From Microbacterium sp. (GTDB lineage: Bacteria > Actinomycetota > Actinomycetes > Actinomycetales > Microbacteriaceae), in assembly GCF_039812165.1 (NCBI RefSeq), contig NZ_JBDIAB010000001.1, forward strand, positions 5,193 to 69,192: a stretch of 64,000 bases of DNA, in the 5' to 3' direction. This document shows positions 1 to 64,000 of this stretch, one piece after another (position 1 is the first letter of the stretch; each line of letters starts with the position of its first letter). The notes beneath the pieces were generated by a model that was not told where the DNA came from, ran no database searches, and saw only the letters and a list, made by a program, of their open reading frames with translations. Both the position numbers and the translations under genes were made by a program.

Positions 1-1888
1 CGAGCTCGGAGTGCGTGCCCTGGCCGGCGACCCGGCCGCGGTCGAGCACGACGATGAGGTCGCTGTCGACCACCGTCGAGAGGCGGTGCGCGATCACCAC
101 GAGCGTGCGGCCGTCGGCGACGGCATCGATCGCCTCGCGCATGCGCTGCTCGTTGAGCCCGTCGAGCGACGAGGTCGACTCGTCGAGCAGCAGGATCGGG
201 GGAGCGGCCAGCAGCGCCCGCGCGATCGCGAGCCGCTGGCGCTCGCCGCCGGAGAGCATGACGCCCGCCTCGCCCACCGGGGCCTGGAGCCCCAGCGGGC
301 TGCGTTCGAGCACCTCGCCGAGGTTCACGGCGCGCAGCACCCGCTCGCAGTCGGCGTCGGACGCCTCGGGCGAGGCCAGTCGCAGGTTGTCGGCGATCGT
401 GCCGGCCAGGGTCGGTGCGTCCTGCTCGACGTAGCCGAGCCGGGCGCGGAGCGCGGAGCGGTCGAGCGTGCGCACGTCCTCGCCGTCGACCAGCACGGCG
501 CCGCCGACCGGGTCGTAGAAGCGCTCGATGAGGGCCAGCGTCGTGGACTTGCCCGCGCCGGACGGCCCGACGAGCGCGACGCGCGATCCGCGCGGGACCC
601 GGAACGACACGCCCCGCAGCACCTCGCCCTCGTCGTCGGGCAGGTCGATCGCGGTCGTGTCGACGTGCGCTTCGGCGAGCATCGCGACGGCTTCGGTCTC
701 GGTCTTCCGCCGCGCCGCGACGACGACCTCGGGGTATGAGAAGCGCACGTCGCGGAACTCGATCGCAACGGCGTCGGTCACCGCGGTCGCCGACTCCGCG
801 CCGTGTGCTGCCGCGGCGCCGCCCGTCTCCGGCGCCGTCGTCGCGGCGGCACGGACGGCCCCGGCGGTCGCGGCATCCGCCTGCGTCTCGGTCGGGAGGT
901 CGAGCACCTCCTGCACGCGCCCGAGCGCGCCGAGCGCCTGGTTCACTGAGGTGATCGCGCCGAAGAACGACCCGAGCGGCTGCACGAGGAAGAACAGGAA
1001 CATCACGAACGTCACGAGGCTCGCGATCGAGATGGCGCCGGATGCCACGCGGAACCCGCCCACGCCCAGCACGACCAGCAGCGAGAGCTGCAGCGCGATG
1101 CCCGCGACCGGCACGACGAGAGCGGACGCCTTGGCCACGCGCACGCCGGCGTCGTAGGCGGCACGGGCGTCGCCGGTGATGGCCTGCTGCTCGCGCTCGG
1201 CCGCCCCCGCCGCGCGGATCGTCCGGATGGACCCGACGGCGCGCTCGACGCCGGCGGCGAGCGCGCCGACCCTCTCCTGCTGCACGGCGGTGGCTTGGCG
1301 GATGCGTCCGCTGAGCACGCCCACGACCGCGACCGATCCGCCGATCACGGCGAGGATCAGCACGAGGAGCAGCGGGTCGATGAGGACCATCGCGATCACC
1401 GCGCCGACGAAGATCAGGACGTTGCCGATCGAGTCGGCGAGACCCTGGGTGAGCACGGCGTAGAGGAGCGTGGTGTCGGTGCCGACGCGCGAGACGAGGT
1501 CGCCGGTGCGGCGCGCGTCGTACTCCTGCACGGGCAGGTGCAGGAGCTGTGCGATGAGCCGGCGGCGGCTCGAGAACACGACCGCGGTGCCGGTGCGCTG
1601 GAGCAGGTAGTGCTGGCATCCGCCGATCAGCGACGAGGCGACGACGAGGGCCACGAGCACCCACACGAGACCGCCGAGGGTGTCGCCCTGCTGCACCCGT
1701 TCGATCACCTGGCCGACGACGAGCGGCTGGGCGAGCGTCGCGGCCGCCGCGAGGATGCTCAGCACCGTCACGAGCACGAGGACGCGCTTGTGCTCGAAGA
1801 GGTAGGGCAGCAGCTGCCGCAGGCTCGCGCGGGGACCGTCGTCCTTGCGCGAGCGGCGCGCTCCGCGGGCGGGTCTGACGACGGACAT
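1..1888 (-). CDS. ABC exporter, fused permease/ATPase (multidrug-type); C-terminus runs off the window start
   Basis: Minus-strand translation from ATG 1888 (MSVVRPARG...ASLRQLLPYLFEHKR) shows six TM segments, RTGDLVSRVGTDT, Walker A VGPSGAGKST (~540-570), LSGGERQR signature and Walker B ILLLDE. It is absent from the ORF track because no stop lies in the window. Confidence 0.9.
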   Translation of the reverse strand, partial: MSVVRPARGARRSRKDDGPRASLRQLLPYLFEHKRVLVLVTVLSILAAAATLAQPLVVGQVIERVQQGDTLGGLVWVLVALVVASSLIGGCQHYLLQRTGTAVVFSSRRRLIAQLLHLPVQEYDARRTGDLVSRVGTDTTLLYAVLTQGLADSIGNVLIFVGAVIAMVLIDPLLLVLILAVIGGSVAVVGVLSGRIRQATAVQQERVGALAAGVERAVGSIRTIRAAGAAEREQQAITGDARAAYDAGVRVAKASALVVPVAGIALQLSLLVVLGVGGFRVASGAISIASLVTFVMFLFFLVQPLGSFFGAITSVNQALGALGRVQEVLDLPTETQADAATAGAVRAAATTAPETGGAAAAHGAESATAVTDAVAIEFRDVRFSYPEVVVAARRKTETEAVAMLAEAHVDTTAIDLPDDEGEVLRGVSFRVPRGSRVALVGPSGAGKSTTLALIERFYDPVGGAVLVDGEDVRTLDRSALRARLGYVEQDAPTLAGTIADNLRLASPEASDADCERVLRAVNLGEVLERSPLGLQAPVGEAGVMLSGGERQRLAIARALLAAPPILLLDESTSSLDGLNEQRMREAIDAVADGRTLVVIAHRLSTVVDSDLIVVLDRGRVAGQGTHSEL

Positions 1889-1917
1889 GGCGGTACCTCG
1901 TTCGTTCGCTCGGGGGG

Positions 1918-2133
1918 TCACTGTCGACCGTACTTCTTGTGCGCCGCCTGGCGGGTCACGCCGAGCGCGCCGGCGATCGCCTGCCACGAATAGCCGAGAT
2001 TGCGGGCGCGGCGCACCTGGACCTCCTCGGCCCGGGCGAGCTCGCGCCGCACGTCGGCGAGACGGTGCAGCTCGGCGAGCGGCTCGCGTTCTCCCGCGGC
2101 CCCGACGAGGGTGCGGATGCCGTCGCCGCTCAT
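1918..2133 (-). CDS. Small actinobacterial HTH protein (GxSWxxIxxxLGVTRQAAHKKY type), probable regulator of the downstream ABC exporter
   Basis: Motif GYSWQAIAGALGVTRQAAHKKY; ATG 2133 preceded by GGAAGGGG; 29 bp upstream of the ABC gene on the same strand. Confidence 0.8.
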   Translation of the reverse strand: MSGDGIRTLVGAAGEREPLAELHRLADVRRELARAEEVQVRRARNLGYSWQAIAGALGVTRQAAHKKYGRQ

Positions 2134-2171
2134 GCGATCCCCTTCCGGATGCCGGAGGCCCGGCATCCACC

Positions 2172-2215
2172 GTCAACCATAGTTGACACTTCAAGGAGCG
2201 TCAACTTGAATTGAC
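2172..2215. promoter_or_regulatory. Two tandem palindromic operators GTCAAC-N4-RTTGAC
   Basis: GTCAACcataGTTGAC at 2172-2187 and GTCAACttgaATTGAC at 2200-2215, in AT-rich DNA upstream of the HTH gene. Confidence 0.7.
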
Positions 2216-2300
2216 GCCTGCCTCGTCGCAACTCATGAGCTCCGCAAGTTGTCCACAGATCGAGCATTCGCACATGTGAACCGCATGCGACACTGGGATC

Positions 2301-2603
2301 ATGAGCCGCATGATCCAGGTTCGAAACGTCCCCGACGACGTCCATGCCCGGCTCAAGGAGCGGGCTGCGGCCGAGCACCTGTCGCTGTCGGACTACCTCA
2401 ATCGCGAGCTCGCCCAGCTCGTCCGGTACCGCAGCAACGCCGAGATCGTCGCCGCGTTCCGCGCGCGCGGGCTCCGGCTGAGCCGGGAGCAGATCCTCGA
2501 CGCCGTGCACGAGGAGCACGAGCTCCGCGACGCACAGCTCGACCGGCTCGGCGACTCGGGTCCGTCTCGAGGCGAGCCGCTCCCCGGCGAGGGTCCGCGG
2601 TGA
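2301..2603 (+). CDS. vapB: Type II antitoxin, FitA-like ribbon-helix-helix
   Basis: MIQVRNVPDDVHARLKERAAAEHLSLSDYL RHH motif; stop overlaps the PIN toxin start (GTGA). Confidence 0.85.
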   Translation: MSRMIQVRNVPDDVHARLKERAAAEHLSLSDYLNRELAQLVRYRSNAEIVAAFRARGLRLSREQILDAVHEEHELRDAQLDRLGDSGPSRGEPLPGEGPR

Positions 2604-2974
2604 CCGCGGTCGTGCTCGACGCCTCCGTCGTGATCGACGCGTTCCTCGGAGAGGGTCCCCGGCAGGACTGGGCGGCCTGGCACTCGCACGCCGGCCTGGA
2701 CGTCGAGGTCCTGTCGGTGCTCCGCAGGAAGGTGCTGCGCGGCGAGCTGCCCGCCCACGGCGCCCGGGAGGTCCTCGACTCCTTCCGCGAGCTCGACATC
2801 GAGCGGCATCCGATCTCCCGGCTGCTCCCTCGGGCTTGGGCGATGCGGCACGACATCTCGGCCTACGACGCCGTGTACGTCGCGCTCGCCGAGTCGCTCG
2901 GCGTACCGCTGGTCACGCTCGACCCTCGGCTCGCCGCGACGGCGAGCCGCTACTGCGACGTCCTGGTGCCGTGA
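2600..2974 (+). CDS. vapC: PIN-domain toxin (VapC)
   Basis: Acidic tetrad VLDAS, DVEV, SAYDA, LVTLD; translationally coupled to the antitoxin. Confidence 0.85.
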   Translation: MTAVVLDASVVIDAFLGEGPRQDWAAWHSHAGLDVEVLSVLRRKVLRGELPAHGAREVLDSFRELDIERHPISRLLPRAWAMRHDISAYDAVYVALAESLGVPLVTLDPRLAATASRYCDVLVP

Positions 2975-3004
2975 GGGTGACGTCGCGCCGGCACACGCGT
3001 GCGC

Positions 3005-3358
3005 TCAGCGCCAGATGACGGCGATGCCCGCGTTCAGAAGGGTCAGGATGCCGACGAGCCAGAACACCGCGGAGGGGACCGCGCCCTCGCGGCGCTGCCG
3101 TGCCGAGCCGATGCCGAGGAGCGCGCCGATCGCGAGCAGCACGACGAGCTTGACGCCGATCTTGGGGTAGTTCAGCGCGCCCTCGACCCCCCACGGTGCG
3201 GCGAGGGCGAGGCCGGCGACCGCGGCGATCGTCATCCCGATGCTCATGAGGCGCGTCACCCGGCGGCGTCCGCCGAAGGCCTCGACCGCCCAGGCGCCGA
3301 AGAGGACGGCGAATCCGACGAGGTGGACGAGGACGACGACATGGCGCAGGATCTCCAT
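3005..3358 (-). CDS. Small four-TM membrane protein
   Basis: Hydrophobic 117 aa ORF (HLVGFAVLFG...NYPKIGVKLVVLLAI); -10 TAGACT 6 nt upstream of the ATG. Confidence 0.75.
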   Translation of the reverse strand: MEILRHVVVLVHLVGFAVLFGAWAVEAFGGRRRVTRLMSIGMTIAAVAGLALAAPWGVEGALNYPKIGVKLVVLLAIGALLGIGSARQRREGAVPSAVFWLVGILTLLNAGIAVIWR

Positions 3359-3574
3359 GCCATCAGTCTAGCTGAAGGTGAGCGACGCGATCGCCGAGCC
3401 GGCATCCGCTCGCCGTTGCGGACGGCATCCACCGGATGATCAGGTCTTTCGGATGAACCGCCCAGAGTCGGTCGATAGCGTGGGCGGGTCCACCGGTGAG
3501 GAAGACGCGGGATCCGCCCGAACGGAGACCGCCCTCGTGCACCGCGCGCCGCCCCCGCGGCCCGGAGGGCGCCG

Positions 3575-3690
3575 GGTTCTCGCCGAGCGTGAGGGTCCGG
3601 AGCACAGCCTGTGCCGGCTGCCCGCTCCCCGAGCGGCTCCCTGTCGCGCCCCGCGCGGCGCTCTGGCCGATGCAGGGAAAGTCCGACCAA
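3575..3690 (+). ncRNA. Candidate structured 5' leader (riboswitch-like) of the lytic transglycosylase gene
   Basis: Stems CAGCC/GGCTG (3605-3620), CCGCTC/GAGCGG (3622-3636), TCCCTG/CAGGGA (3638-3678) enclosing GCGCC/GGCGC, ending just upstream of the RBS. Family not identified. Confidence 0.35.
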
Positions 3691-3700
3691 CCGGAGTCCC

Positions 3701-4606
3701 GTGTCCTTCTCCCGCTCTTCCCTCGTCCGCCCTGCCATCGTCGCGCTCGCGCTCGCCGTCCCCCTCGTCGCGGCGGGCGCCGCGGCGGCCCCCGACGCGA
3801 TCGCCCCGCACCCGGCCGGCTCCGGCGTCGTCTCGTCGGCCGCCTCGGAGGCGGCCGGCTTCGGCCCGTCGCTCACCGTCAAGGCTCCCATGGTCATCGC
3901 CGTGCAGGAGTCCGGCGCCGACGGCATCGGCGGGGTCGTCGTGCGTGCGTCCTTCGACGAGCGCGCGAAGTCGGCCATCAAGGATGCCCGTCGCACCGAG
4001 AGCAGCGTGAAGGGCAAGGTCTCCGACTCCTCGCTCACGACCGCGATCTCGCGGCTCTCCGACTTCGAGGACATGCCCCTGCAGAAGGTCGACGAGCTGA
4101 CCCGTGCGCTCGAGCGCACGACCGTGCGCGCCGCCCAGCAGGCCGTCGGGCACGACGTCGACGCCGCCGTCCAGGGCGTCATCGGCTCGGCGCAGACGAT
4201 CGGCGCCCAGGCGCTGGCCACCGCGGCCGCCCAGGCGCAGGCCATCGCCGAGGCGCAGGCCGCCGCGGCCCGCGCCCAGATGCTCGCCCAGGTGAACACC
4301 CCCGACGGCTCGCGCGCCTACGCGCGCGACCTGGCCGCGTCGCAGTACGGCTGGGGCGACGGCGAGTTCCAGTGCCTCGACTCGCTGTGGATGAAGGAGT
4401 CGGGCTGGAACTACCTCGCCTACAACGACGGCAGCGGCGCCACCGGCATCCCGCAGTCCCTTCCCGGCAGCAAGATGGCCACGTTCGGCGACGACTGGCA
4501 GACCAACGCGGCGACCCAGATCGCGTGGGGCCTGGACTACATCGCCAAGGTGTACGGATCGCCGTGCTCGGCGTGGGGCCACTCGCAGGCCACCAACTGG
4601 TACTGA
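3701..4606 (+). CDS. Secreted lytic transglycosylase-like (SLT/Rpf-related) protein
   Basis: Signal peptide, Ala-rich coiled-coil, C-terminal WGDGEFQCLDSLWMKESGWN...SGATGIPQSLP...NAATQIAWGLDYI..YGSPCSAW; GGAG RBS before GTG 3701. Confidence 0.85.
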   Translation: MSFSRSSLVRPAIVALALAVPLVAAGAAAAPDAIAPHPAGSGVVSSAASEAAGFGPSLTVKAPMVIAVQESGADGIGGVVVRASFDERAKSAIKDARRTESSVKGKVSDSSLTTAISRLSDFEDMPLQKVDELTRALERTTVRAAQQAVGHDVDAAVQGVIGSAQTIGAQALATAAAQAQAIAEAQAAAARAQMLAQVNTPDGSRAYARDLAASQYGWGDGEFQCLDSLWMKESGWNYLAYNDGSGATGIPQSLPGSKMATFGDDWQTNAATQIAWGLDYIAKVYGSPCSAWGHSQATNWY

Positions 4607-4619
4607 TCCGGCACGCGCG

Positions 4620-4663
4620 CGAGACGGGCGGCGGGGCGCGGGAGCGTTCCGCCGCCCGTCTCG
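4620..4663 (+). terminator. Intrinsic terminator-like hairpin
   Basis: 15-bp perfect stem CGAGACGGGCGGCGG / CCGCCGCCCGTCTCG immediately after the stop at 4606. Confidence 0.6.
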
Positions 4664-4707
4664 TGTTCGCGCCTGCGATCGGGGCGTCGCGACGGTGGCA
4701 GCGCCCA

Positions 4708-4768
4708 TGATTAAACGCTTGACCAAACCAGATCTCGAGCGTATGATCAGTGATCAAACGCTTAATCA
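4708..4768 (+). promoter_or_regulatory. SigA promoter with two LacI-family operators
   Basis: -35 TTGACC 4719-4724, 17-bp spacer, -10 TATGAT 4742-4747; operators TGATTAAACGCTTGACCA 4708-4725 and TGATCAAACGCTTAATCA 4751-4768 with a central CG. Confidence 0.85.
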
Positions 4769-4783
4769 TCCGAAGGTGGTCAC

Positions 4784-6253
4784 GTGCGCGCTCCGGTGTT
4801 CTTCCCGCCGTCGGAGGCCTGGGTCGGCGGTGCGATCCCGTGGCAGGAGGACGGAGAGTTCCATCTCTTCTACCTGCACGAGGCACGCGTCCACGCCCGG
4901 CCGGACGCCCGCTGGCATCTCGTGACCACCGCCGACCTCCTGCACTTCTCCGATCGCGGCGTCGCACTCGCCGACGGCGGGCTCGACGACGTCGAGGTCG
5001 ACGCCTGCACCGGCAGCGTCGTGCGCGCGGACGACGGCGTGCACCACCTCTTCTACGCGAGCCAGAGCCCGAGGCGGCCGGGCGCCGACGGGCGCCCGCT
5101 GCAGCAGATCTCACACGCCACGAGCAGCGACGGCATGCGGAGCTGGCGGCGTCATCCCGAGCTCGCCTTCGGCGCGATCGACGGCTACGAGCCGGCGCAC
5201 TGGCGGGATCCGTTCGTGTTCCGCGACGACACGGCCGGCGTGTGGCGCATGCTGATCGCGGCCCGCCACCTCGACGGACCCGAGCGGCGCCGCGGTGTCA
5301 TCGCGCAGTTCGTCTCGCGCGACCTCACGACGTGGAAGCCGACCGAGCCGTTCTGGGATCCGCGTCGCTACCCCGCGTACGAGTGCCCCGAGGTCTTCCG
5401 GTGGGGCGACTGGTGGTACCTCGTCTACTCCGAGCTCTCGGAGTCGTTCGCGACCAGGTACCGGATGGCGCGGACCCTGCAGGGCCCGTGGCTCATCCCC
5501 GACCGCGACACGATCGACGGCCGCGCCTACTATTCGGCGAGATCGGCCGAACGCGACGGCCGGCGCCTCTTCTTCGGCTGGATCGCGAGCCGGGAGTTCT
5601 CCGACGACGACGGCACCTGGCAGCGGGGCGGCACGATGTCCGTGCTCGAGGCGCGGCAGGAGGCCGGCGGCACGCTCGCCTTCGCCCTGCCCGACGAGCT
5701 CGTCGCCGGCTTCGGCGTCGAGGAGCCCGTGGCGCTGCAGGATGCCGTGACCGGACTCGCCGTGCCGGCATCGGCGGTCGGATTCGCGCTGGACGCACCG
5801 GAGGGCTATGGCGCCCTCGTGACCGAGGAGGCGCTGCCCGAGCAGTTCTACGCGACGGTGCGGCTCTCGCTCGACGTGGGCACGACCGAGTGCGGCCTGC
5901 TGCTGCGCACCAGCGCGAGCGGCGACGTCGGCTACATCGTGCGCATCGAGCCGCGCCGCAACCGGATGGTCTTCGACCGCTGGACGCGCGCCGGCGCCGC
6001 CGCCGCCACGCGCGGACGGCTCCCCGGCGACGTGCCGTTCGCGCTCGAGCTCGAGCGCCCGTGCGACCTGAGCTCCGGCGAGCACGTGCTCGAGATCGTC
6101 GTCGACGGCGACCTGTGCGTCGTCAACCTCGACCGCAGTGTGATCCTCAGCACCCGGATCTACGACCACGGCGAGGGACGCCTGGGCCTGTTCGTCGGCG
6201 AGGGCGGAGTGACCTTCTCCGAGCTCGCCATCCGCACGCGCGCAGAGGCGTGA
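4784..6253 (+). CDS. GH32-family (beta-fructofuranosidase-like) protein, apparently lacking the nucleophile Asp
   Basis: HLFYLH, TGSVV, WRDPFVF and ECPEVF motifs plus a C-terminal beta-sandwich; the N-terminal motif reads WVGGAIP. Confidence 0.85.
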   Translation: MRAPVFFPPSEAWVGGAIPWQEDGEFHLFYLHEARVHARPDARWHLVTTADLLHFSDRGVALADGGLDDVEVDACTGSVVRADDGVHHLFYASQSPRRPGADGRPLQQISHATSSDGMRSWRRHPELAFGAIDGYEPAHWRDPFVFRDDTAGVWRMLIAARHLDGPERRRGVIAQFVSRDLTTWKPTEPFWDPRRYPAYECPEVFRWGDWWYLVYSELSESFATRYRMARTLQGPWLIPDRDTIDGRAYYSARSAERDGRRLFFGWIASREFSDDDGTWQRGGTMSVLEARQEAGGTLAFALPDELVAGFGVEEPVALQDAVTGLAVPASAVGFALDAPEGYGALVTEEALPEQFYATVRLSLDVGTTECGLLLRTSASGDVGYIVRIEPRRNRMVFDRWTRAGAAAATRGRLPGDVPFALELERPCDLSSGEHVLEIVVDGDLCVVNLDRSVILSTRIYDHGEGRLGLFVGEGGVTFSELAIRTRAEA

Positions 6254-6312
6254 CCCGCCGCGCGCCCGCGATGATCTACGGTCGTGGGAAGGGCGACGAA
6301 GGGAGGGCGTCG

Positions 6313-7338: not shown

Positions 7339-7402
7339 GCCGCCGTCCGTCCCCGTCCGACCGTCGGCTCCCGCCTCGGCACACGAGCGGTCGTGCCACC
7401 GG

Positions 7403-7531
7403 CTCACCGGGCGCGTGCGGTCGCGCCGGTGCGTGCGAGCGACGGGATGCGCCAGGTGAGTCGCGGTCCCACCGGTCGACTGGGCGCCCGCGGTCGAGGA
7501 CGTGCCGACTGACGACAGAATGCGCCGGGTG
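7403..7531. repeat. REP-like intergenic repeat: inverted pair plus a third copy
   Basis: 7405-7424 CACCGGGCGCGTGCGGTCGC is the inverse (16/20) of 7439-7458 GCGACGGGATGCGCCAGGTG; third copy CGACAGAATGCGCCGGGTG at 7513-7531. Confidence 0.5.
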
Positions 7532-15539: not shown

Positions 15540-16400
15540 CTACTTGAGCAGACGCGAGAGCCGCCGGTCGGCGAGGATCTTGCCGCCGGTCTGGCAGGTC
15601 GGGCAGTACTCCAGGCTGTTGTCGGCGAAGAACACCGACCGCACGGTGTCGCCGCACACGGGGCAGGCCTCGCCGCGGCGGCCGTGCACGCGCATGCCGC
15701 GGCGCTTGGCGTCCTTGAGATCGGCGGGCGGCTTTCCGGATGCCGTGGCCACGGCATCCGTCAACAGCTCGATCATCGCGTCGTAGAGCCGGTCGACGTC
15801 CGCGTCGCCGAGGCTCGTGGCGAGCGCGTACGGCGACATCCTCGCGGCGTGGAGGATCTCGTCGGAGTAGGCGTTGCCGATGCCGGCGATGATCGACTGG
15901 TCGCGCAGGACCCCCTTGATCTGCGTGCGCCTGCCGTCGAGCAGCCCGGCGAGCGTGTCGCGGTCGAAGGCGGGGTCGAGCGGATCCGGGCCGAGGCGCG
16001 CGACGCCGGGGACGTCGCGCGGGTCGCGCACGACGTAGACGGCGAGGGACTTCTTCGTGCCGGCCTCGGTGAGGTCGAAGCCGGAGCCGTCGTCGAGCCC
16101 TACGCGCAGGGCGATGGGCGTCCGGCCCGGGCGGATGACGGTGGACGGCAGCTGGTCGTACCAGCGCAGCCAACCGGCCTTGGCGAGATGGAAGACGAGG
16201 TGCGGCCCGGTCGTGGCGAGGTCGACGAACTTTCCGTGGCGCGCGGCGCCCGTGACGACCGCGCCCTTCAGGGCGTCGACCGGCGGATCGTAGGTCTTGA
16301 GCGCAGCGATGTTCGCGACCGTGACCTTCGTGATCGCGAGCCCCGCGAGCCGCTCGCCGAGGAAGTCGACGAGCCCCTGCACCTCCGGCATCTCGGGCAT
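15540..16400 (-). CDS. Fpg/Nei-family DNA glycosylase
   Basis: MPEMPEV N-terminal catalytic Pro, H2TH DQSIIAGIGNAYSDEIL, zinc finger CPVC...CPTCQ. Confidence 0.93.
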   Translation of the reverse strand: MPEMPEVQGLVDFLGERLAGLAITKVTVANIAALKTYDPPVDALKGAVVTGAARHGKFVDLATTGPHLVFHLAKAGWLRWYDQLPSTVIRPGRTPIALRVGLDDGSGFDLTEAGTKKSLAVYVVRDPRDVPGVARLGPDPLDPAFDRDTLAGLLDGRRTQIKGVLRDQSIIAGIGNAYSDEILHAARMSPYALATSLGDADVDRLYDAMIELLTDAVATASGKPPADLKDAKRRGMRVHGRRGEACPVCGDTVRSVFFADNSLEYCPTCQTGGKILADRRLSRLLK

Positions 16401-16492
16401 GCGCCCATCCTCGCACGCAGCTCCGACGATGCCCAGGTGTTGCACGGCCGCGAGCCGCTGGCCCTCGGGCTAGGTTCGCCGCGCCCGCTGGT

Positions 16493-16561
16493 CATAACTC
16501 AGGCAAGACGGCGGCTCGGCCCGGCCGAGCAGTCTCTGACGGCTGTTCTGCCTGAGTTGTG
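16493..16561. repeat. REPIN-like inverted-repeat doublet, left flank of the DUF559 gene
   Basis: CATAACTCAGGCA (16493-16505), 43-bp spacer with an internal GCTCGGC/GCCGAGC hairpin, TGCCTGAGTTGTG (16549-16561). Confidence 0.85.
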
Positions 16562-16719
16562 CGCGCTGCCGCGATGGTTCCGGGAGATGCCGGGTGTCCG
16601 TTACCTCTTGCGAGACCTCAAACCGAAGAGTCCTCCTCCACAAGCGGCCAATCCCAGCAGCTCTGCACATTCTCGGGAACGAGCCTCTTGGCGGCTTCGG
16701 ATGGGTCCACCCTGGGAGG

Positions 16720-17583
16720 ATGCTGCGATCGCGGGTCGAAAAGGGAACGGTCCTGACCCGTGCCGATCTGCTCTCCGCGGGCATGCGTCCGAGGCAGATC
16801 ACGGCCGCGGTGGGGAACGGGAGCCTTCAGCGACTCCGCCGCGACAGGTACCTCGCGGAACCGCTCGACGGCGTCGGCCAGGCCGTTCGGGTGGGAGGTC
16901 GACTCGCCTGCGTGTCGATGCTGGCGCCGCTCGGGGTCTTCGTCCTCGACAGCTCACGGCTGCATGTCCATGTCGAACGTTCGATGTCCCGGTTGCGCTC
17001 GCCCCACGATCGTCTGCGTGGACTGGACCAGAACTCTCGGCGGGAACTGGACCTGCACTGGTGGCCGTTGCGAGGAGACGACGCCACACTCGGCCACGTC
17101 GGACTCCTCGATGCCGTGTGCCAGGCGATCAGGTGCCAGCCCCCGCGCGCCGCGGTCGCGACCATCGACAGCATCCTTCATCTCGGTCTGATGACACGAG
17201 CGGAGATCCGCGACCTCTTCGGATGCCTGCCCAAGCAATACCGCATCATCCTCTCTCTGACAGACGGAATCGCCGAGTCCGGCCCGGAGACGTTCATGCG
17301 CCTGATCCTCCGGCAACTCGGGCTGCGCTATCGGACGCAGGTGACGATTCCGGGCGTGGGCCGAGTGGACTTCCTCGTCGAGGGATGGCTGATCATCGAG
17401 TGCGACAGCAGGGCGCACCATGAAGGCTGGGAGAAGCAGCGTCAGGACCGACGCCGTGACCTGGCTGCCGCCGCGCTCGGCTACGCGACGCTCAGGCCGC
17501 TCGCCGAGCACCTCATGTACGACCCCGCTGTGGTCATCTCAGCCGTGCGCGGAATCGCTCGCACCCGCCGCCGCGCGGCGTAG
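16720..17583 (+). CDS. AbiEi-like N-terminal wHTH plus C-terminal DUF559/Vsr-like PD-(D/E)xK endonuclease
   Basis: N-terminal TRADLLSAG...GSLQRLRRDRY; C-terminal ESGPET..R...QVTIPGVGRVDFLVEGWLIIECDSRAHH...DRRRD...GY..LR; visibly more A/T-ending codons than neighbours. The ORF is open back to 16594, so the start is uncertain. Confidence 0.8.
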   Translation: MLRSRVEKGTVLTRADLLSAGMRPRQITAAVGNGSLQRLRRDRYLAEPLDGVGQAVRVGGRLACVSMLAPLGVFVLDSSRLHVHVERSMSRLRSPHDRLRGLDQNSRRELDLHWWPLRGDDATLGHVGLLDAVCQAIRCQPPRAAVATIDSILHLGLMTRAEIRDLFGCLPKQYRIILSLTDGIAESGPETFMRLILRQLGLRYRTQVTIPGVGRVDFLVEGWLIIECDSRAHHEGWEKQRQDRRRDLAAAALGYATLRPLAEHLMYDPAVVISAVRGIARTRRRAA

Positions 17584-17623
17584 GCGCAGCGGGCAGGCCG
17601 GTCACGGTTCGCGGCACTATCGC

Positions 17624-17698
17624 GCGCATAACTCAGGCAGATCAAGCCCGCCTGACCTGTGAGGCCTCGTTTGGCCTCGAACTGCCTGAGTTATGCGC
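17624..17698. repeat. REPIN-like inverted-repeat doublet, right flank of the DUF559 gene
   Basis: Perfect 17-bp inverted repeat GCGCATAACTCAGGCAG (17624-17640) / CTGCCTGAGTTATGCGC (17682-17698); 43 bp between the 13-bp cores; internal GAGGCC/GGCCTC hairpin. Confidence 0.9.
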
Positions 17699-17732
17699 AG
17701 GGTGCGAGCCGGATGAGGTAGCCGCCTGGACG

Positions 17733-18737
17733 CTAGACGCGGCGGAGGAGGCCGACCTTGTCGTAGACGTCGGCGAGGGTCGCGTTCGCGACCTCCTCGG
17801 CGCGCCCCGCGTTGACCGCGAGCACGCGGTCGAGCTCGCCGGGATCGGCCAGCAGCGCGAGCGCGCGCTCGCGTACCGGGCCGAACTCGTTCACGACGAC
17901 CTCGGCGAGGCCCTTCTTGAAGTCTCCGTAGCCGCGTCCGGCGTACTCGTCCTCGATCGACGGGATCTGACGCCCGGTCAGCGCGGCGTAGATCACCAGC
18001 AGGTTCGACACGCCCGGCTTGGCCTGCCGGTCGTAGCGCACCGAGCCCTCCGAGTCGGTGACGGCCCGCATGATCTTCTTCGCGGTGACCGCCGGGTCGT
18101 CCAGCAGCCACAGCACGCCGGCGTCCGACTCGGCCGACTTCGACATCTTGGCGGTCGGGTTCTGCAGGTCGAAGATGCGCGCGGTGTCCTGCTGGATGAC
18201 CGGCATCGGCACCGTGAACGCCCGCCCGTACCGCGAGTTGAACCGCTCCGCGAGGTCGCGCGTGAGCTCGACGTGCTGCTTCTGGTCGTCGCCGACCGGC
18301 ACGATGTCGGTCTGGTAGAGCAGGATGTCGGCCGCCATGAGCATCGGGTAGGTGAAGAGCCCGACGTTGGTGGCGTCGGACCCGTACCGCTGCGACTTGT
18401 CCTTGAACTGCGTCATGCGGCCGGCCTCGCCGAAGCCGGTGATGGTCGACAGGATCCACGCCAGCTCGGCGTGGGCGGGCACGTGCGACTGCACGTACAG
18501 CGTCGCGCGCGACGGCTCGATGCCGGCCGCGATGTACTGGGCGGCGGTGCGCCGCGTCTTCTCGCGCAGCTCGGCCGGGTCGTTCGGCTGGGTGAGCGCA
18601 TGCAGGTCGACGACCGAGAAGAACGCCTGGTACGACTGCTGCAGCTCGCGCCACTGCATGAGCGCCCCGATGTAGTTGCCGATCTGGAGGGAGTCGGCGG
18701 AGGGCTGCATTCCGGAGTAGAGGCGCGGTTTGGTCAC
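17733..18737 (-). CDS. trpS: Tryptophan--tRNA ligase
   Basis: SGMQPS, LQIGNYIGA, VDLHALT, VPVGDDQKQH, KMSKS. Confidence 0.97.
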   Translation of the reverse strand: MTKPRLYSGMQPSADSLQIGNYIGALMQWRELQQSYQAFFSVVDLHALTQPNDPAELREKTRRTAAQYIAAGIEPSRATLYVQSHVPAHAELAWILSTITGFGEAGRMTQFKDKSQRYGSDATNVGLFTYPMLMAADILLYQTDIVPVGDDQKQHVELTRDLAERFNSRYGRAFTVPMPVIQQDTARIFDLQNPTAKMSKSAESDAGVLWLLDDPAVTAKKIMRAVTDSEGSVRYDRQAKPGVSNLLVIYAALTGRQIPSIEDEYAGRGYGDFKKGLAEVVVNEFGPVRERALALLADPGELDRVLAVNAGRAEEVANATLADVYDKVGLLRRV

Positions 18738-18800
18738 CCGACAATCCTAGGGCTGGCGGATGCCGGGGCTTCCGACGGCGGCGAGGCCCGCGCCGCGGGC

Positions 18801-23023: not shown

Positions 23024-23024
<1 letters not shown>
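22245..23024 (-). CDS. sdhB: Succinate dehydrogenase iron-sulfur subunit
   Basis: RRSCAHGICGSDAM, CILCAACTSSCP, CRTTFNCTEACP. Confidence 0.96.
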
Positions 23025-24850
<1,826 letters not shown>

Positions 24851-38586: not shown

Positions 38587-38963
38587 GGCTGACTCTCCTT
38601 TGCAGGGGCCGCGGGGTGCGCGGCTTCGGGTGGCGAGGCGGTGGCCTCGGCGGATTCGGGACGGTCGGCGGCGGCGTCGACGAGGTCGAGCGTCCGGGTG
38701 CCGTCGCGGTCGGAGAAGATGTCGTGCGGCAGCAGGACGACGCGGATGCCGCGGGCTGCGGCATCCCGTCGGATGTCCTCGAACGCGCCGGCCAGGTGCG
38801 GACCGAGCAGCAGCACGTCCGCGACGTCGCGCTCGACCGGCAGCGACGCCTGCGTGCCCGCCGCGGCGGTCACGGCGCGACCGCGTGCCTCGGCGGCGCG
38901 TCGGACGCGCTGCGCGACGAACGTGCTGGAGGCTCCCGCTCCGCAGACGACGAGGATCTTCAT
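38583..38963 (-). CDS. Stand-alone PTS EIIB, lactose/cellobiose type
   Basis: MKILVVCGAGASS, VLLLGPHL; ATGA overlap with mtlA. Confidence 0.8.
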   Translation of the reverse strand: MKILVVCGAGASSTFVAQRVRRAAEARGRAVTAAAGTQASLPVERDVADVLLLGPHLAGAFEDIRRDAAARGIRVVLLPHDIFSDRDGTRTLDLVDAAADRPESAEATASPPEAAHPAAPAKESQP

Positions 38964-56288: not shown

Positions 56289-56485
56289 CGCGAGGGCGAC
56301 CCCGCCACCGGGGTTGGACGGCCGCTCGCACCCGCGCGGAAACCTCTCGCCGAGTGCGCGCCGTCGCCCGAGGTCGCCGCGGCCGCGCGCGCACGGACGG
56401 AAGCCTCCGGGAGCGCTCCGGAGCGCATGCCCGACTCCGGTCGCCGCTCCCCGTTCCCGCACGGCACCGGCACTAAGCTGATCGC

Positions 56486-58370: not shown

Positions 58371-59413
58371 CGCTGTCGGTGCGCACCGTCCTCTCCGTGC
58401 TCGGCGTCGCGTTCACGGCCTACCTCGCGGTGGGCGGGCTCGCCTGGCGGCCCGTGCCGCACCCGCTGCTGCTCATCGCCATGCTCGCCATCTATCTCGT
58501 GACGACGTGGCTGTGCATCTTCTGGCCCGCCCGGCAGGCCGCGCCGGATGCCACGGCCGTCCTCACCGCGGGGCTCAGTCGCCGCTTCGTCCTGCCCGGC
58601 TGGGCCGCGGCGGTGGCGCTCGCCGTCGCCGCCGTCGTCCCGAGCGTGACGTGGTACGCCGCCGGCCCGGAGTCGCGGCTGGAGTCGTTCGCGACCTGGA
58701 GCCTGGGCGGCCTCGCGGCCCTCATGGCGATCGTCATGGTGCGCCGCCGCCCCTGGGTCGCATGGACCGGGGTCGTGCTGCTGACCGCCGCCGCGACCAT
58801 CTGGATCGGCCTCCTCGACGCGCTCACCCTCGGCGCCGTCGGCGCGGTCGTGTGGGTGGGCGTCGCCCAGCTGCTCACGTGGCTCGTCGACCGCGCGGCA
58901 CGCGACACGGCCGAGCTGACCGAGGTGCAGCGGCACGCGTCGGAGTGGCTGGCGTCGCAGGAGGGCCGTCGCCGCGAGCGCCGCGTGCAGGTGTGGCGCG
59001 CGCTCACCGTCGCGGGACCGGTGCTGACGCGCACGATCGAGACGGGCGGACAGCTGGACGACGACGAGCGGATGCGGGCGCGCCTCGCGGAGGGGAGCCT
59101 CCGCGACGAGCTGCGCGGACGGGGCCTGCTCGACGACGACGTCCGCCGCCGGCTCGAGGCGGCCCGCCGCCGCGGCGCGAGCGTCACGGTGCTCGACGAG
59201 GGCGGCCTCGACGGGCTGGACGAGCGCGGGCTGCAGACCATCCGCGCCGAGCTCGCCGGGATCCTCGACCAGGCGCACTCCGACCGCCTCTACATCCGCA
59301 CGTCGCCGCACGACGGCATCGCGGTGACCGTCGTGGGGCGTTCGCGCAGCGCCGACGACGCCGAGGAGAGCGTCGACCTCTGGCACGAGATCGCGCAGCC
59401 CCCGCACGCGTAG
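58367..59413 (+). CDS. Membrane protein resembling a degenerate sensor kinase
   Basis: Five to six TMs, coiled coil, LRDELRG, no H-box and no ATP-lid motifs; ATGA coupling to the kinase. Confidence 0.7.
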   Translation: MTLSVRTVLSVLGVAFTAYLAVGGLAWRPVPHPLLLIAMLAIYLVTTWLCIFWPARQAAPDATAVLTAGLSRRFVLPGWAAAVALAVAAVVPSVTWYAAGPESRLESFATWSLGGLAALMAIVMVRRRPWVAWTGVVLLTAAATIWIGLLDALTLGAVGAVVWVGVAQLLTWLVDRAARDTAELTEVQRHASEWLASQEGRRRERRVQVWRALTVAGPVLTRTIETGGQLDDDERMRARLAEGSLRDELRGRGLLDDDVRRRLEAARRRGASVTVLDEGGLDGLDERGLQTIRAELAGILDQAHSDRLYIRTSPHDGIAVTVVGRSRSADDAEESVDLWHEIAQPPHA

Positions 59414-59607
59414 CGTCGCGCCGGACGGTCGTCGCGGCACGGGCGCGGGCGACCGCATCCCTGTCGGACGGATGCAGGGCCGTCGTCTCGCCTCCGCCGT
59501 CCGCACCGCGTTCGCGCGGGCGCGTCACGCCGCGTTCGACCGGCGCAGGAGGCGATCCGTGATGCCGTGACGCGCGTCATCGCCGGCCCAGGAGAGGGGC
59601 TGGATGA

Positions 59608-59780
59608 GGCGAGGGGCGGCGAAGCCGCCCGCCCCTCGCCATGCGAGCGGTTACCCGAAAACCGACTCGCGGGCCGGCCCGACCTGAGAAGAGGCGGGCC
59701 AACCGAACGCAGCAGCGTTCCAGCACTTCTAGATTGCCAGCCCGCGAAGAATTCGTCTGTAGGTATTTCGGGGGACAGAT
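59608..59780. ncRNA. Candidate small RNA: three adjacent hairpins plus an AT-rich promoter-like tract
   Basis: Stems at 59608-59640, 59643-59670 (loop ACCCGAA) and 59676-59700; AT-rich 59720-59775. Confidence 0.35.
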
Positions 59781-59804
59781 CCGCGGCCGCCGTCCGGCCT
59801 CCGG

Positions 59805-60059
59805 TCAGCCGCCGAACCGGCCCCAGCCGAGCTCGCGACGCAGCGGCGTGCGCAGGCCCCGCGCCGACAGCTCCCAGCCGGTGCGTCGCGGCCGGTCGTC
59901 GGCGACGGCGGTGGCCGCCTCGCGCGCGTACGACTCGGTCACGACGGCCACGATCGCCGCGAGCTCCTCGGGCGTCGGCGAGCCGCGCAGCACGTCGATG
60001 TGCAGCGGCTTGTCGGCGAGGTCGCCGGAGCGGTCCTCGGCAGCGTTGCCCGGGGTCAT
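59805..60059 (-). CDS. accE: Acyl-CoA carboxylase epsilon subunit
   Basis: [17 protein letters not shown]...W; coupled to the beta subunit gene. Confidence 0.85.
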
Positions 60060-61645
60060 AGCGGGATGTTACCGTGCTTCTTCGCGGGCATGCTCGCGCG
60101 CTTGCCGCGCAGCGCCCGGAGCGCCTTCGCGACGTACACGCGGGTCTGCGCGGGCTCGATGATGGCGTCGAGCTCGCCGCGCTCGGCGGCCAGGAACGGC
60201 GACGCCACGTTGTAGGTGTACTCGTTCGCGAGACGGGTGCGCACCGCCGCGACGTCCTCGCCGGCCTCCTCGGCCTTGCGGATCTCGCCGCGGTACAGGA
60301 TGTTCACCGCGCCCTGACCGCCCATGACCGCGATCTCGGCGGTCGGCCACGCGAGGTTGACGTCGGCGCCGAGCTGCTTCGAGCCCATCACGATGTACGC
60401 GCCGCCGTAGGCCTTGCGCAGGATCACGGTCACCAGCGGCACGGTCGCCTCCGCGTACGCGTACAGCAGCTTCGCGCCGCGGCGGATGACGCCGGTCCAC
60501 TCCTGGTCGGTGCCGGGCAGGTAGCCGGGCACGTCGACGAGCGTGAGGATCGGGATCGAGAACGCGTCGCAGAAGCGCACGAAGCGGCTGGCCTTCTCGC
60601 CGGCCTCGATGTTGAGGGTGCCGGCCATCTGCGACGGCTGGTTCGCGATGATGCCGACGGTGCGGCCTTCGACGCGGCCGAAGCCGATCACGATGTTCGG
60701 CGCGAACAGCGGCTGCACCTCGAGGAAGTCGGCGCTGTCGACGATGTGCCCGATCACCTGGTGGATGTCGTAGGGCTGGTTCGGCGAGTCGGGGATGATC
60801 GTGTTCAGGAACTTGTCGGCATCCGTCGTCTCCCACTCGAACTCGTGCTCGTAGTCGGGGAGCTCGGCCATGTTGTTGTCGGGGAGGAAGCCCAGGAGCG
60901 ATCGCACGTAGTCGATCGCGTCGTCCTCGTCCTCGGCCAGGTAGTGCGCGACGCCCGAGCGCGTGTTGTGCGTGTAGGCGCCGCCGAGCTCCTCCATGCC
61001 GACGTCCTCGCCGGTGACCGTCTTGATGACGTCGGGGCCGGTGACGAACATCTGGCTCGTCTTGTCGACCATGACGACGAAGTCGGTGAGGGCGGGGGAG
61101 TAGACCGCGCCGCCGGCCGCGGGGCCCATGATGATCGAGATCTGGGGGATGACGCCGGATGCGGCGGTGTTCAGGCGGAAGATCTCGCCGTACTTGCCGA
61201 GGGCCACGACGCCCTCCTGGATGCGCGCTCCGCCGGAGTCGAGGATGCCCACGCACGGCATGCCGTTGCGCATCGCGAACTCCATGATCTTGATGATCTT
61301 CTCGCCGGCCACCTCGCCGAGCGAGCCGCCGAACGTCGTGAAGTCCTGCGCGTAGATGCAGACGACGCGGCCGTGGATGCGGCCGACGCCGGTGACGACC
61401 GAGTCGCCGTAGGGGCGCGCGCGATCCATGCCGAACGCGGCGGTGCGGTGGCGCACGTACTCGTCGAGCTCGACGAACGAGCCCGGGTCGACGAGCATGT
61501 CGACGCGCTCGCGTGCGGTGAGCTTGCCCTTCGCGTGCTGCTTCTGCTGCGCCTTCTTCTCGGCGTCGACGACCGCCTCCTGGTAGCGCGCGCGGAGGTC
61601 GGCGATCTTGCCGGCTGTCGTTGAGAGGTCGGGCTGGTCCGTCAC
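60056..61645 (-). CDS. pccB: Acyl/propionyl-CoA carboxylase beta subunit
   Basis: [43 protein letters not shown]. Confidence 0.94.
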
Positions 61646-61782
61646 GGGTTCCACCCTAGCGAGCGACTCCGCGCAGGCGGTGGCGACCCGCGACAACGGA
61701 ACACGGCATCCGCTGTCGGCTTCCACGGGGTCGCGGGCCGTCCGGGATGCCGTGCGGTCGGGCCGCGCGTATCGTGGCGGGC

Positions 61783-62565
61783 ATGTCGATTCCATCGGAG
61801 GGGTACCCCGAGGCGGCCGCGGTCAGCCCTCGCCTGCACGTCGTCGAGACCACCGACTCGACCAATGCGCTGCTGCTGCGCGCCGTCGCCGACGCGCCGG
61901 ACGAGCACCCGCACCTGTCGGTCGTGCTCACGCGCGACCAGCGCGCCGGACGCGGGCGGCTCGATCGCACGTGGGTCGCACCGCCCGACACCGCGCTCGC
62001 GATCTCGGTGCTGCTGCGCGCGGGCGCCGTGCCGATGCACGCGCGCGGCTGGATCCCGCTCGCGGCCGGAGCGGCCATGTGCCGCGCGCTGCGCACGCAG
62101 CTGGGCGCGCACGACGTCGTCCTCAAGTGGCCGAACGACGTGCTGGTCGACGGCCGCAAGATCTGCGGCATCCTCGCCGAGGTCGCCCCGGGCGACCCGC
62201 AGGCGGTCGTCGTCGGCGCGGGGGTCAACACTGCGATGCCGGCCGCCGAGCTGCCCGTGCCCACCGCGACCTCGTTCGCCGCGCTCGGCGAGACCGCCGA
62301 CGAGGACCGCCTGCTCGCGGACTACCTCACCGGCCTGCGCGACCGCGTCGCCGCGCTCGCCGTCGCCGACGGCGCGGCGGACGGCCTGCGCGACGAGGTC
62401 GCCGAGCTCTGCGCCACGATCGGCGCCGAGGTCTCGGTGGCCCTTCCCGGCGGCGGCGCGCTGGAGGGCCGGGCCGTCGGCCTCGACGCCGACGGACGGC
62501 TCGTCGTCGAGTCGCTCGGGGTCGAGACCGCAGTGGGGGCAGGGGACGTCGTCCACGTGCGCTGA
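61783..62565 (+). CDS. birA: Biotin--[acetyl-CoA-carboxylase] ligase
   Basis: [37 protein letters not shown]. Confidence 0.94.
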
Positions 62566-62616
62566 TCCGGGCGCGCCGGGGCCGCGCACGCCGTCCCGGC
62601 GCGTCACAATGGAGGG

Positions 62617-63192
62617 GTGACCCAGCCGACCGCGTACATCGGGCGTCCGCTCACCCCCGCTCCGGGGGCCGCCACGGGCGAGCTACGGGTCGCGCGCTTC
62701 CGCCCGCACGCGCGGCGTCTGCTGTGGTCGGCGCTCCTCCTCATCGCCGTGTCGGGGGCGGTCGGCTACCTCACCGGCAACCTGCCCGCCCCGTTCGCCG
62801 ACTGGATGCTGTGGGCCGCGGCGACCGTCGTCGTGCTGCTCCTCGTCGTCATCCCGTACCTGCGCTGGGCCGCGCACACCTACACGATCACGACGCGCCG
62901 CATCATCGAGCAGCGCGGGCTGGTCGCGCGGCACCAGTCGGAGCTCAGTCACGTCCGCGGCTACACGATCGCCGAGCGCCGCGGACCGCTGCAGCGGATG
63001 TGGGGCTGCGGCACGCTCACCCTCTCGAACGGCGTCGACGCGCCGCTGCGGCTGGTCGACATCCCCCTCGTGACGCTCGTGCACGAGGTGCTCGCGGACC
63101 AGGTCGAGGTGAGCCAGATCATCGCGCACCGGGACTCGCAGAGCATCCCGCGCCTGCCCGAAGGCCCCACCCCCGGTCAGCCCGCCTCCTGA
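62617..63192 (+). CDS. Bacterial PH-domain membrane protein
   Basis: Two TMs, YTITTRR, LQRMWGCGTL; birA-PH-purK order typical of actinobacteria. Confidence 0.8.
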   Translation: MTQPTAYIGRPLTPAPGAATGELRVARFRPHARRLLWSALLLIAVSGAVGYLTGNLPAPFADWMLWAAATVVVLLLVVIPYLRWAAHTYTITTRRIIEQRGLVARHQSELSHVRGYTIAERRGPLQRMWGCGTLTLSNGVDAPLRLVDIPLVTLVHEVLADQVEVSQIIAHRDSQSIPRLPEGPTPGQPAS

Positions 63193-63243
63193 CGCCGGTC
63201 GCCCCCGGCGTGGGCGAAGATGGGTGAGGACGGAAGGAGCGCG

Positions 63244-64000
63244 ATGTCGCTGAAGGTGGGAGTCGTCGGCGGAGGGCAGCTGGCGCGCATGATGATCGCC
63301 CCGGCGGTCGAGATCGGCATCGAGCTGCGCGTGCTGGCCGAGGAGCCCGGCATGGCGGCGGCCCTCGCCGCCACCGCGGTGGGCGACTACCGCGACGCCG
63401 AGACGGTCCTCGCGTTCGCGCGCGACGTCGACGTCGTCACCTTCGACCACGAGCACGTGCCGCAGGACGTCCTCGCCGCGCTCGTCGACGCCGGCGTCGC
63501 CGTGCACCCCGGGCCCGCGGCGCTGGCCTTCGCGCAGGACAAGCTGCGCATGCGTGCGCGGCTGGAGGAGCTCGGGATGCCGCAGCCGGAGTGGGCGGCC
63601 GTCGCCGACGCCGCGCAGCTGCAGGCCTTCGTCGACGCCCACGGCGGCCGCGCCGTCGTGAAGACGCCGCGCGGCGGCTACGACGGCAAGGGCGTGCGCG
63701 TCGTCGCCGACGCCGGCGAGGCCGCCGACTGGCTGGCCGCGCTCTCCGGCGACGGGCGGCTGCTCGTCGAGGAGCTCGTCGACTTCACGCGCGAGCTCGC
63801 GCAGCAGGTCGCCCGTCGGCCCTCCGGAGAGCTGCGCCCCTACCCGGTCGTGGAGACGGTGCAGCGCGACGGCGTGTGCGCCGAGGTGATCGCGCCCGCA
63901 CCGCACGCGAGCGAGCGGCTCGTCGCGGTCGCCGCCGAGATCGGCGTCGGCATCGCGGAGGGCCTGGGCGTGACCGGGATGCTGGCGGTCGAGCTGTTCG
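63244..64000 (+). CDS. purK: N5-carboxyaminoimidazole ribonucleotide synthase (partial, runs off the window end)
   Basis: VGVVGGGQLARM, VTFDHEHV, AQDKL, KTPRGGYDGKG; GAAGGAG RBS. Confidence 0.95.
   Translation, partial: MSLKVGVVGGGQLARMMIAPAVEIGIELRVLAEEPGMAAALAATAVGDYRDAETVLAFARDVDVVTFDHEHVPQDVLAALVDAGVAVHPGPAALAFAQDKLRMRARLEELGMPQPEWAAVADAAQLQAFVDAHGGRAVVKTPRGGYDGKGVRVVADAGEAADWLAALSGDGRLLVEELVDFTRELAQQVARRPSGELRPYPVVETVQRDGVCAEVIAPAPHASERLVAVAAEIGVGIAEGLGVTGMLAVELF

Follow-up and report, generated by a model that had tools for sequence, protein, structure and literature searches.

The DNA analysed here, called the window throughout, is a stretch of 64,000 nucleotides from a Microbacterium sp. 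of the family Microbacteriaceae (assembly GCF_039812165.1, contig NZ_JBDIAB010000001.1). It corresponds to positions 5193-69192 of contig C1 (G000:C1:5193-69192) in the genome labelled G000. Among other features, the window carries the gene sdhA, a repeat-flanked AbiEi/DUF559 gene, several inverted repeats and many dispersed copies of the heptamer GGATGCC, or GGCATCC when read on the other strand (Table 1). GGATGCC is a sharp, strand-symmetric, DNA-level and family-specific word, which is maintained on resident DNA by a force about as strong as codon bias. The assembly comprises 3.11 Mb in 312 contigs, with 72% GC and a completeness of about 90%. The closest match of its sdhA gene is found in Microbacterium sp. 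1H019, a metagenome-assembled genome (97%).

Table 1. Coordinates of the features discussed in the text. Positions refer to the window unless a contig (C) or locus (L) label is given.
Feature	Position	Strand	Remarks
GGATGCC/GGCATCC, 96 dispersed copies	872..63581	52 on +, 44 on -	first copy at 872, last at 63575-63581
Convergent pair GGATGCCGG-aggc-CCGGCATCC	2147..2168 (C1:7339-7360)		9-bp stem; non-coding, upstream of a minus-strand gene start
Perfect 22-bp palindrome GGATGCCGTGG/CCACGGCATCC	15738..15759		
Word-poor 3-kb stretch	15760..18757		single copy at 17221; surrounds the repeat-flanked AbiEi/DUF559 gene
DUF559 match	C1:22509-22739		inside the word-poor stretch
sdhA	23024-24850	-	gene used for the site-history study
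Two baseline copies in sdhA	23731-23737, 24055-24061	+	read GGC-ATC-C (Gly-Ile) in the gene
Rare-codon copy AAG-GAT-GCC, sdhA nt 549	24296..24302	-	from the alignment of orthologues
Convergent pair GGATGCCGC-gggct-GCGGCATCC	38744..38766		9-bp stem
Orphan methyltransferase locus, genome G011	L137:1462-3210		
Orphan methyltransferase locus, genome G001	L132:1462-2343		
Orphan methyltransferase locus, genome G014	L136		
Orphan methyltransferase locus, genome G000	L254:2297-2640		gene absent

Over-representation, symmetry and spacing of GGATGCC

An earlier note on this DNA had counted about 95 copies of the word against about 15 expected. The count was borne out: the window holds 96 copies, compared with 14.46 +/- 3.85 in 100 dinucleotide-preserving shuffles, the largest of which reached 23. 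All the coordinates named at that time were recovered on the expected strands (GAT-GCC sites on the plus strand and GCA-TCC sites on the minus strand). In the whole genome, 4867 copies were found (2431 forward and 2436 reverse), which corresponds to 1.57 per kb. Under Markov models of orders 0 to 5, the genome-wide ratio of observed to expected counts was 6.6, 7.2, 6.0, 4.8, 2.0 and 1.3, and GGATGCC ranked first among all 7-mers under orders 1-4. The 5th-order model, which had been suggested as a check, thus still leaves a 1.3-fold excess. The DNA uptake sequences (DUS) and uptake signal sequences (USS) of other bacteria are present in hundreds to thousands of copies, at about 1 per kb and far above expectation, and the same holds for GGATGCC.

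The recognition of GGATGCC is sharp, and all seven of its positions are specific. Genome-wide, no enrichment of its single-base neighbours was found and none of them is depleted; the variant GGATGTC shows a weak enrichment in this genome. GGACGCC, the GC-richer synonymous neighbour, occurs at 0.99 times its expectation in the genome, and 39 times in the window against 47 +/- 6 expected. The flanks carry information at positions -1 (C in 51% of copies) and +1 (G in 80%) only, which gives the fuller form cGGATGCCg and excludes a mobile element or a REP-like (repetitive extragenic palindrome) repeat as the source. The 9-mer CGGATGCCG accounts for 41 of the 96 copies in the window, compared with 3.6 +/- 1.7 expected.

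The two orientations of the word are balanced. The window and four other contigs together carry 174 plus-strand and 153 minus-strand copies, with 46-55% on the plus strand in each contig, and forward and reverse counts are equal in all genomes examined, as is the case for DUS and USS. The distances between copies are also more even than chance would give. In the window, the 95 gaps average 660 bp with a coefficient of variation of 0.75, and the largest gap is 2272 bp, compared with about 3400 bp expected. Over 224 one-kb bins containing 327 sites, the ratio of variance to mean was 0.77 (chi2 ~172, 223 degrees of freedom, one-sided p ~0.008). The sole control word, GGACGCC, gave a non-significant dispersion index of 0.85 over 64 bins. 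All spacing and dispersion statistics were tallied by hand from site listings.

A minority of the copies form close inverted pairs. Convergent pairs (GGATGCC-N0-20-GGCATCC) occur 126 times in the genome against about 40 expected from site densities, whereas the 30 divergent pairs are at chance level. About 5% of all copies sit in convergent pairs, many of which are extended palindromes or hairpins with stems of 9-12 bp; stem-loops made of inverted copies are likewise typical of DUS and USS. Of the four inverted pairs proposed previously, those at 2147/2162, 15738/15753 and 38744/38760 proved to be convergent with such stems, whereas the fourth (61705/61745) is divergent, with 33 nt between its copies, and has no extended stem. 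Beside the first pair, the segment 2169-2210 contains the inverted repeat GTCAAC-cata-GTTGAC followed by GTCAACTTGAA, an arrangement that resembles the operator of a divergent promoter region.

The genome contains a second unusual word, AGTGACT/AGTCACT, which is present in 115 copies and exceeds high-order Markov expectation 8-13-fold. The order-5 list is headed by several words of the form AG-NNN-CT (AGCGGCT, AGTCGCT, AGGCGCT and AAGCGCT).

GGATGCC as a DNA-level signal within and between genes

The relation between the word and codon choice was analysed in 1998 genes called by GC content at third codon positions (76% of the genome). Synonymous codons were shuffled within each gene, which preserves each protein and the codon usage of each gene. 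The called genes contain 3543 copies of GGATGCC compared with 1108 +/- 14 in the synonymous shuffles (3.2-fold), and with 1344 +/- 27 in a stricter shuffle that kept each codon together with the next base (2.6-fold). The excess therefore persisted in the codon-preserving shuffle that the earlier note had set beforehand as its refuting test. All six reading frames show an excess over the synonymous shuffles: G-GAT-GCC (1195 copies vs 172 expected), G-GCA-TCC (750 vs 22), xGG-CAT-CC (205 vs 27), GGA-TGC-C (135 vs 16), xGG-ATG-CC (174 vs 89) and GGC-ATC-C (1084 vs 782).

Several of these frames use codons that are minor in this genome, namely GAT (12%), GCA (4%) and CAT (13%). The proposed comparison of GAT usage between a preceding G and a following GCC with the background usage showed that, in the G-GAY-GCC context, the share of GAT climbs from about 12% to roughly half. 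The word places rare codons in roughly 13-17% of the Asp-Ala and Ala-Ser dipeptides that are compatible with it. G-GAT-GCC and G-GCA-TCC, the most frequent of the rare-codon forms, read as each other's reverse complement, and the uncalled regions are as dense in the word (1.70 per kb) as the called genes (1.51 per kb), in agreement with the copies already reported from intergenic DNA. The cause therefore acts on double-stranded DNA and not on translation. The shuffle tests thus support the original proposal of a genome-wide DNA-level signal, comparable to DUS or to the cyanobacterial highly iterated palindrome HIP1, that bends codon choice.

The history of individual sites was studied in sdhA. 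The two Gly-Ile copies in this gene are common to about 75 of 80 Microbacterium species and to an outgroup; such shared copies explain the baseline that is seen in all high-GC actinobacteria. The rare-codon copies of sdhA, in contrast, are clade-structured. At nt 276, the outgroups and word-poor species have GAC-GCC or GAC-GCG, whereas seven word-rich species all have GAT-GCC, and the adjacent synonymous sites vary freely among these seven species. At nt 549, GAT-GCC is present in this genome and in one distant species, the closest tested relative has GAT-GCG, and other species have GAC-GCG, GAC-GCC or GAC-GAC; the alignment indicates that this copy was gained in the present lineage. The word occupies nt 276 in 32 and nt 549 in 26 of 80 species, compared with about 5% for a neutral Asp-Ala site, a comparison biased by the choice of sites that carry the word. 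The gains in sdhA involve both C>T and G>C changes, and therefore no single mutational path accounts for them. The sdhA orthologues of two other genomes, G018 (L040, C11:1242-3053) and G019 (L043, C1:591040-592791), each contain one in-frame TGA in an otherwise full-length match, which may reflect a sequencing error, a pseudogene or recoding.

Taxonomic range and scarcity in acquired DNA

The enrichment of GGATGCC is a trait of the Microbacteriaceae, graded in strength; the earlier note had guessed this family correctly. Within Microbacterium, densities range from 0.18 to 2.25 per kb, with low values in M. mitrae (0.18), M. sorbitolivorans (0.23) and M. oxydans (0.59) and high values in M. oleivorans (1.64), M. 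hydrothermale (1.64) and M. schleiferi (1.63). Among 90 genera of the family, each represented by one genome, the densities form a continuum from 0.08 to 1.89 per kb, and about 20 genera reach or exceed 1 per kb. Twelve other families of the same order have 0.15-0.41 per kb. A class-wide draw of about 190 genomes from about 58 other families gave 0.07-0.41 per kb throughout; it took in three unpublished genomes (G169, G174 and G181), which are ordinary baseline points and carry none of the conclusions. DUS and USS are shared across a family, with variation or dialects between species; GGATGCC is family-wide and graded.

Within the genome, acquired DNA is poor in the word. Two defence systems, both poor in GGATGCC, were identified on short contigs outside the window: the C-terminal two thirds of a type ISP restriction-modification enzyme (G000:C228, L027:973-4068) and a class 1 DISARM module consisting of DrmMI and DrmD (G000:C92, L028:2-6078). 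The type ISP gene carries 0.3 copies per kb, DrmD 0.3 and DrmMI 0.7, compared with 2.3 per kb in native DNA on the same contig as defence genes. In the window, the poverty of the stretch around the AbiEi/DUF559 gene is in line with the low density that the word has in mobile or acquired DNA.

No host-like excess of GGATGCC was observed in four sampled phages, as judged against shuffles and not against host density: they carry 0.17-0.54 copies per kb, near shuffle expectation, the densities of their hosts not having been measured. In samples of 11 kb, phage Nicky22 (M. foliorum) has 2 copies against 2.3 expected, Franklin22 (M. testaceum) 6 against 2.4 and Squircle (Curtobacterium) 3 against 2.7. 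The temperate phage Min1 has 16 copies against 11.0 expected and is uninformative as a test, since its host flank is itself word-poor. The right end of the Min1 record (EF579802, L167:40945-46365) carries host-like metabolic genes for FGAM synthase II and a fatty acid desaturase, and looks like flanking chromosomal DNA or cargo.

Processes that may maintain the word

A sharp, symmetric, DNA-level and family-specific word calls for a protein that reads it. The tentative interpretation that we place first is that GGATGCC serves as a self tag read by a putative family-specific protein, the likeliest process being an uptake or recombination drive of the DUS/USS type. The word, in the form cGGATGCCg, would mark the chromosomes of the Microbacteriaceae and would be read in its double-stranded form by a protein conserved in the family. 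About 1-2 copies per kb may then be kept on resident DNA by a weak force that resembles selection, treats both strands alike and is comparable in strength to codon bias. Fragments with the word would be preferentially taken up and/or recombined, and alleles with the word would spread at the expense of alleles without it. The observation that sites arise by different substitutions and persist amid scrambling synonymous neighbours was counted in favour of such a drive. The earlier note had also offered a DNA-binding protein or uptake and recombination as possible causes; both options stand, and the second, although unproven, fits the anatomy of the word best.

The ranking of a DUS/USS-like drive in first place is based on a point-by-point match between this anatomy and the published properties of uptake sequences, which lie mostly inside open reading frames, are found to about 10% in inverted repeats, have no orientation bias and, according to Karlin, are evenly spaced (PMC1939737). 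The word was compared with the DUS of the Neisseriaceae (core GCCGTCTGAA, with dialects, read by the minor pilin ComP) and with the USS of the Pasteurellaceae (core AAGTGCGGT). Like these, GGATGCC is short and non-palindromic, occurs about 1-2 times per kb and is family-wide and graded (PMC1939737, PMC3630211, PMC2397512). It is also mostly intragenic, overrides codon choice, is equal on both strands without replication polarity and is evenly spaced, with a minority of copies in hairpin-forming inverted pairs and few copies in foreign DNA. Unlike these, it is shorter (7-9 bp vs 9-12 bp), has no known receptor and belongs to a Gram-positive family without a demonstrated case of either natural transformation or sequence-specific uptake. 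On a more novel reading, which we consider less likely than not, GGATGCC would be the first sequence for DNA uptake or self-recognition in a Gram-positive, actinobacterial family. No published description of the word was found in the library searched, which also yielded nothing relevant on Microbacterium or Microbacteriaceae methylomes, on actinobacterial uptake sequences or on over-represented oligonucleotides of the family.

The machinery encoded by these genomes is compatible with uptake throughout the Microbacteriaceae but does not discriminate. ComEC was found in 79 of 80 genera and 18 of 18 congeners, and a Tad-type (CpaF-type) pilus ATPase in all 80 genera; profiling of ComEC and pilus ATPases was therefore abandoned as a lead. 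Beyond the universal Tad-type ATPase, a complete PilB/PilT pair of type IV pilus ATPases is present in 40 of the 80 genera.

Several points weigh against an uptake or recombination drive. Sequence-specific uptake is not known from any Gram-positive bacterium, and no uptake, transformation or binding experiment is on record for the Microbacteriaceae. No candidate receptor for GGATGCC was found, and ComEC was not found in the present assembly, which is 90% complete. ComEC and the Tad ATPases are near-universal and hence do not track the density of the word; the PilB/PilT locus tracks it weakly (0.71 vs 0.52 per kb) and is absent from the densest genus. The even spacing rests on hand tallies of the 327 sites and on one small control word, and any slow chromosomal process would likewise leave acquired DNA and phages with a low density of the word.

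Another explanation, rather unlikely in our judgement, is that the copies are binding sites of a family-specific chromosomal protein with a role in nucleoid organisation, condensin loading, replication or repair, and that their density is under selection. It is favoured by the even spacing (dispersion index 0.77), by the sharp recognition with the palindromic frame CGG-ATG-CCG, by the persistence of sites across saturated synonymous divergence and by the restriction to one family, and it has a precedent in the proposal of Xu et al. for HIP1 (PMC5861425). However, no candidate protein was found, and the graded 20-fold range of densities among genera, with the near-empty genome G116 (0.08 per kb) and M. 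mitrae (0.18 per kb), is hard to reconcile with an essential structural role.

The comparison with HIP1 (GCGATCGC) touches both this explanation and the next one. The anatomy of GGATGCC matches that of HIP1 in part (PMC5861425, PMC4390886): both are hyper-abundant GC-rich words that occur in all reading frames and use non-preferred codons. HIP1 is also conserved among orthologues, as GGATGCC may be to judge by its two rare-codon sites in sdhA. HIP1 is a perfect palindromic octamer, whereas GGATGCC is asymmetric, with CGG-NNN-CCG as its only palindromic frame, and its enrichment is 6-7-fold, compared with 15-300-fold for HIP1. The abundance of HIP1 goes with cognate orphan methyltransferases, whereas the genome studied here keeps GGATGCC without the only conserved orphan methyltransferase of its relatives. 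The function of HIP1 itself is debated between biased repair, chromosome structure and, recently, transformation or horizontal gene transfer (PMC4390886, PMC5861425, bioRxiv 10.1101/2024.09.10.611283, PMC13756078).

In a further explanation, near-copies are turned into GGATGCC by a bias in mismatch repair or gene conversion, which methylation may direct, and the copies themselves have no function. Elhai's model for HIP1 provides the precedent (PMC4390886), and the weak, genome-wide action of the force on both strands would suit such a process. The gene inventory bears on it directly. In the present assembly, about 90% complete, no C5 methyltransferase (PF00145), no PF01555 methyltransferase and no Vsr were found, which removes a C5 methyltransferase with Vsr as the driver; four genes with DUF559, a Vsr-like fold, are present. 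The sole DNA methyltransferases (PF02384/PF07669 matches) are parts of the type ISP enzyme and DISARM DrmMI, unlikely drivers as strain-level genes on word-poor islands. With no other methyltransferase in the genome, the suggested link to type IIS enzymes such as FokI and SfaNI was not upheld.

Five complete word-rich congeners, in contrast, each have one PF01555 gene, an orphan beta-class N6-adenine methyltransferase that adjoins a gene for lipoate-protein ligase and lacks a nuclease partner. Its nearest models are the YhdJ family (NCBIfam) and M.RsrI/CcrM, and it contains the motifs DPPFNTG ... FAGSGTTG and a variable linker rich in Ala, Pro and Glu. Orthologues with 63-89% identity were found in 73 of 80 genera and are kept even in genomes of 0.9 Mb. 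The seven genera without it are all word-poor (0.08-0.54 per kb), and it is missing from none of the 33 genera at or above 0.6 per kb. The orphan methyltransferase thus loosely tracks the density of the word across the family, a suggestive association (p ~0.006-0.02, without phylogenetic correction and with thresholds chosen after the data were seen). The site of YhdJ, ATGCAT (PMC9239280), shares an ATGC/GCAT core with GGATGCC, a further point in favour of methylation-directed repair, as are the DUF559 genes.

However, word-poor Microbacterium species and outgroup families at 0.2-0.4 per kb also have this gene, and its core sequence is the same in them. In the present genome and its nearest relative G031, which differ by about 13% in nucleotide sequence, it is deleted at the syntenic place, where lplA is followed by a gnd-like gene. 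Neither genome contains a PF01555 gene, yet they have 1.57 and 1.72 copies per kb, and therefore methylation by the orphan enzyme is not needed to keep the word. The enzyme was rejected as the driver on these grounds, and the methylation and repair bias suggested previously was not supported, C5 methyltransferases and Vsr being absent as well. Other observations speak against biased repair more generally: some gains are GC>AT changes, whereas very-short-patch repair acts in the opposite direction, and several substitution types are needed; no neighbouring word is depleted as a repair substrate would be; and independent creation of sites predicts Poisson or clumped spacing rather than under-dispersion. 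Overall, we do not consider biased repair a likely cause.

Context-dependent mutation bias alone, that is, a hot spot without reader or function, is clearly unlikely. The central A/T pair lies along the universal GC>AT mutation bias, and the graded distribution could mirror a quantitative change in a polymerase or repair enzyme. Against this, C>T as well as G>C changes have produced sites, in each of the six frames and with specificity at all seven positions, many species retain rare-codon copies next to synonymous sites that have become scrambled, the spacing is under-dispersed, and the four sampled phages, which replicate in related hosts, lack a host-like excess.

A polar recombination or segregation signal of the Chi type, or of the type of KOPS (FtsK-orienting polar sequences) and AIMS (architecture-imparting sequences), is very improbable. 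These polar octamers are likewise short, lineage-specific, over-represented words, read by DNA-processing machines, and Chi usually has family-specific sequences. The known Chi and KOPS words, however, have a strong leading-strand skew that follows the direction of replication. The strand balance of GGATGCC (+174/-153, with no polarity in any of the five contigs) excludes such a signal, and at 1.5 copies per kb the word is far denser than Chi in E. coli. We can practically dismiss the idea that the word follows from the usage of codons, dipeptides or amino acids, or from the avoidance of restriction sites such as GACGC: about one fifth of the copies are GGC-ATC-C in preferred codons and supply the baseline of about 0.2-0.4 per kb of all high-GC Actinomycetia, but the excess survives both shuffles, which refute a codon or dipeptide artefact, and occurs in non-coding DNA, GGACGCC is at expectation and not depleted, which rules out its avoidance or that of GACGC, and the roughly 190 other actinobacterial genomes, some of them Streptomyces-sized (G+C content not tabulated), show no excess.

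Iterated genome-wide words are rare, and each of the known ones (USS, DUS, Chi, KOPS and HIP1) has led to a specific DNA-handling machine. The Microbacteriaceae are a large and ecologically important family, which includes plant pathogens and common isolates from soil, plants and skin. It has become a testable question whether they tell self from foreign DNA by its sequence when they take up or recombine DNA or organise their chromosomes, and named species of high and low density, together with natural lineages with and without the orphan methyltransferase, are now available for experiments. The word is also a cheap marker for distinguishing native from acquired DNA in Microbacteriaceae genomes, and its addition to constructs might improve the genetic tools for this family. 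If GGATGCC is an uptake sequence, the Microbacteriaceae would exchange chromosomal DNA by natural transformation via a sequence-specific receptor, and the density of the word in each genus would record how active this exchange has been.

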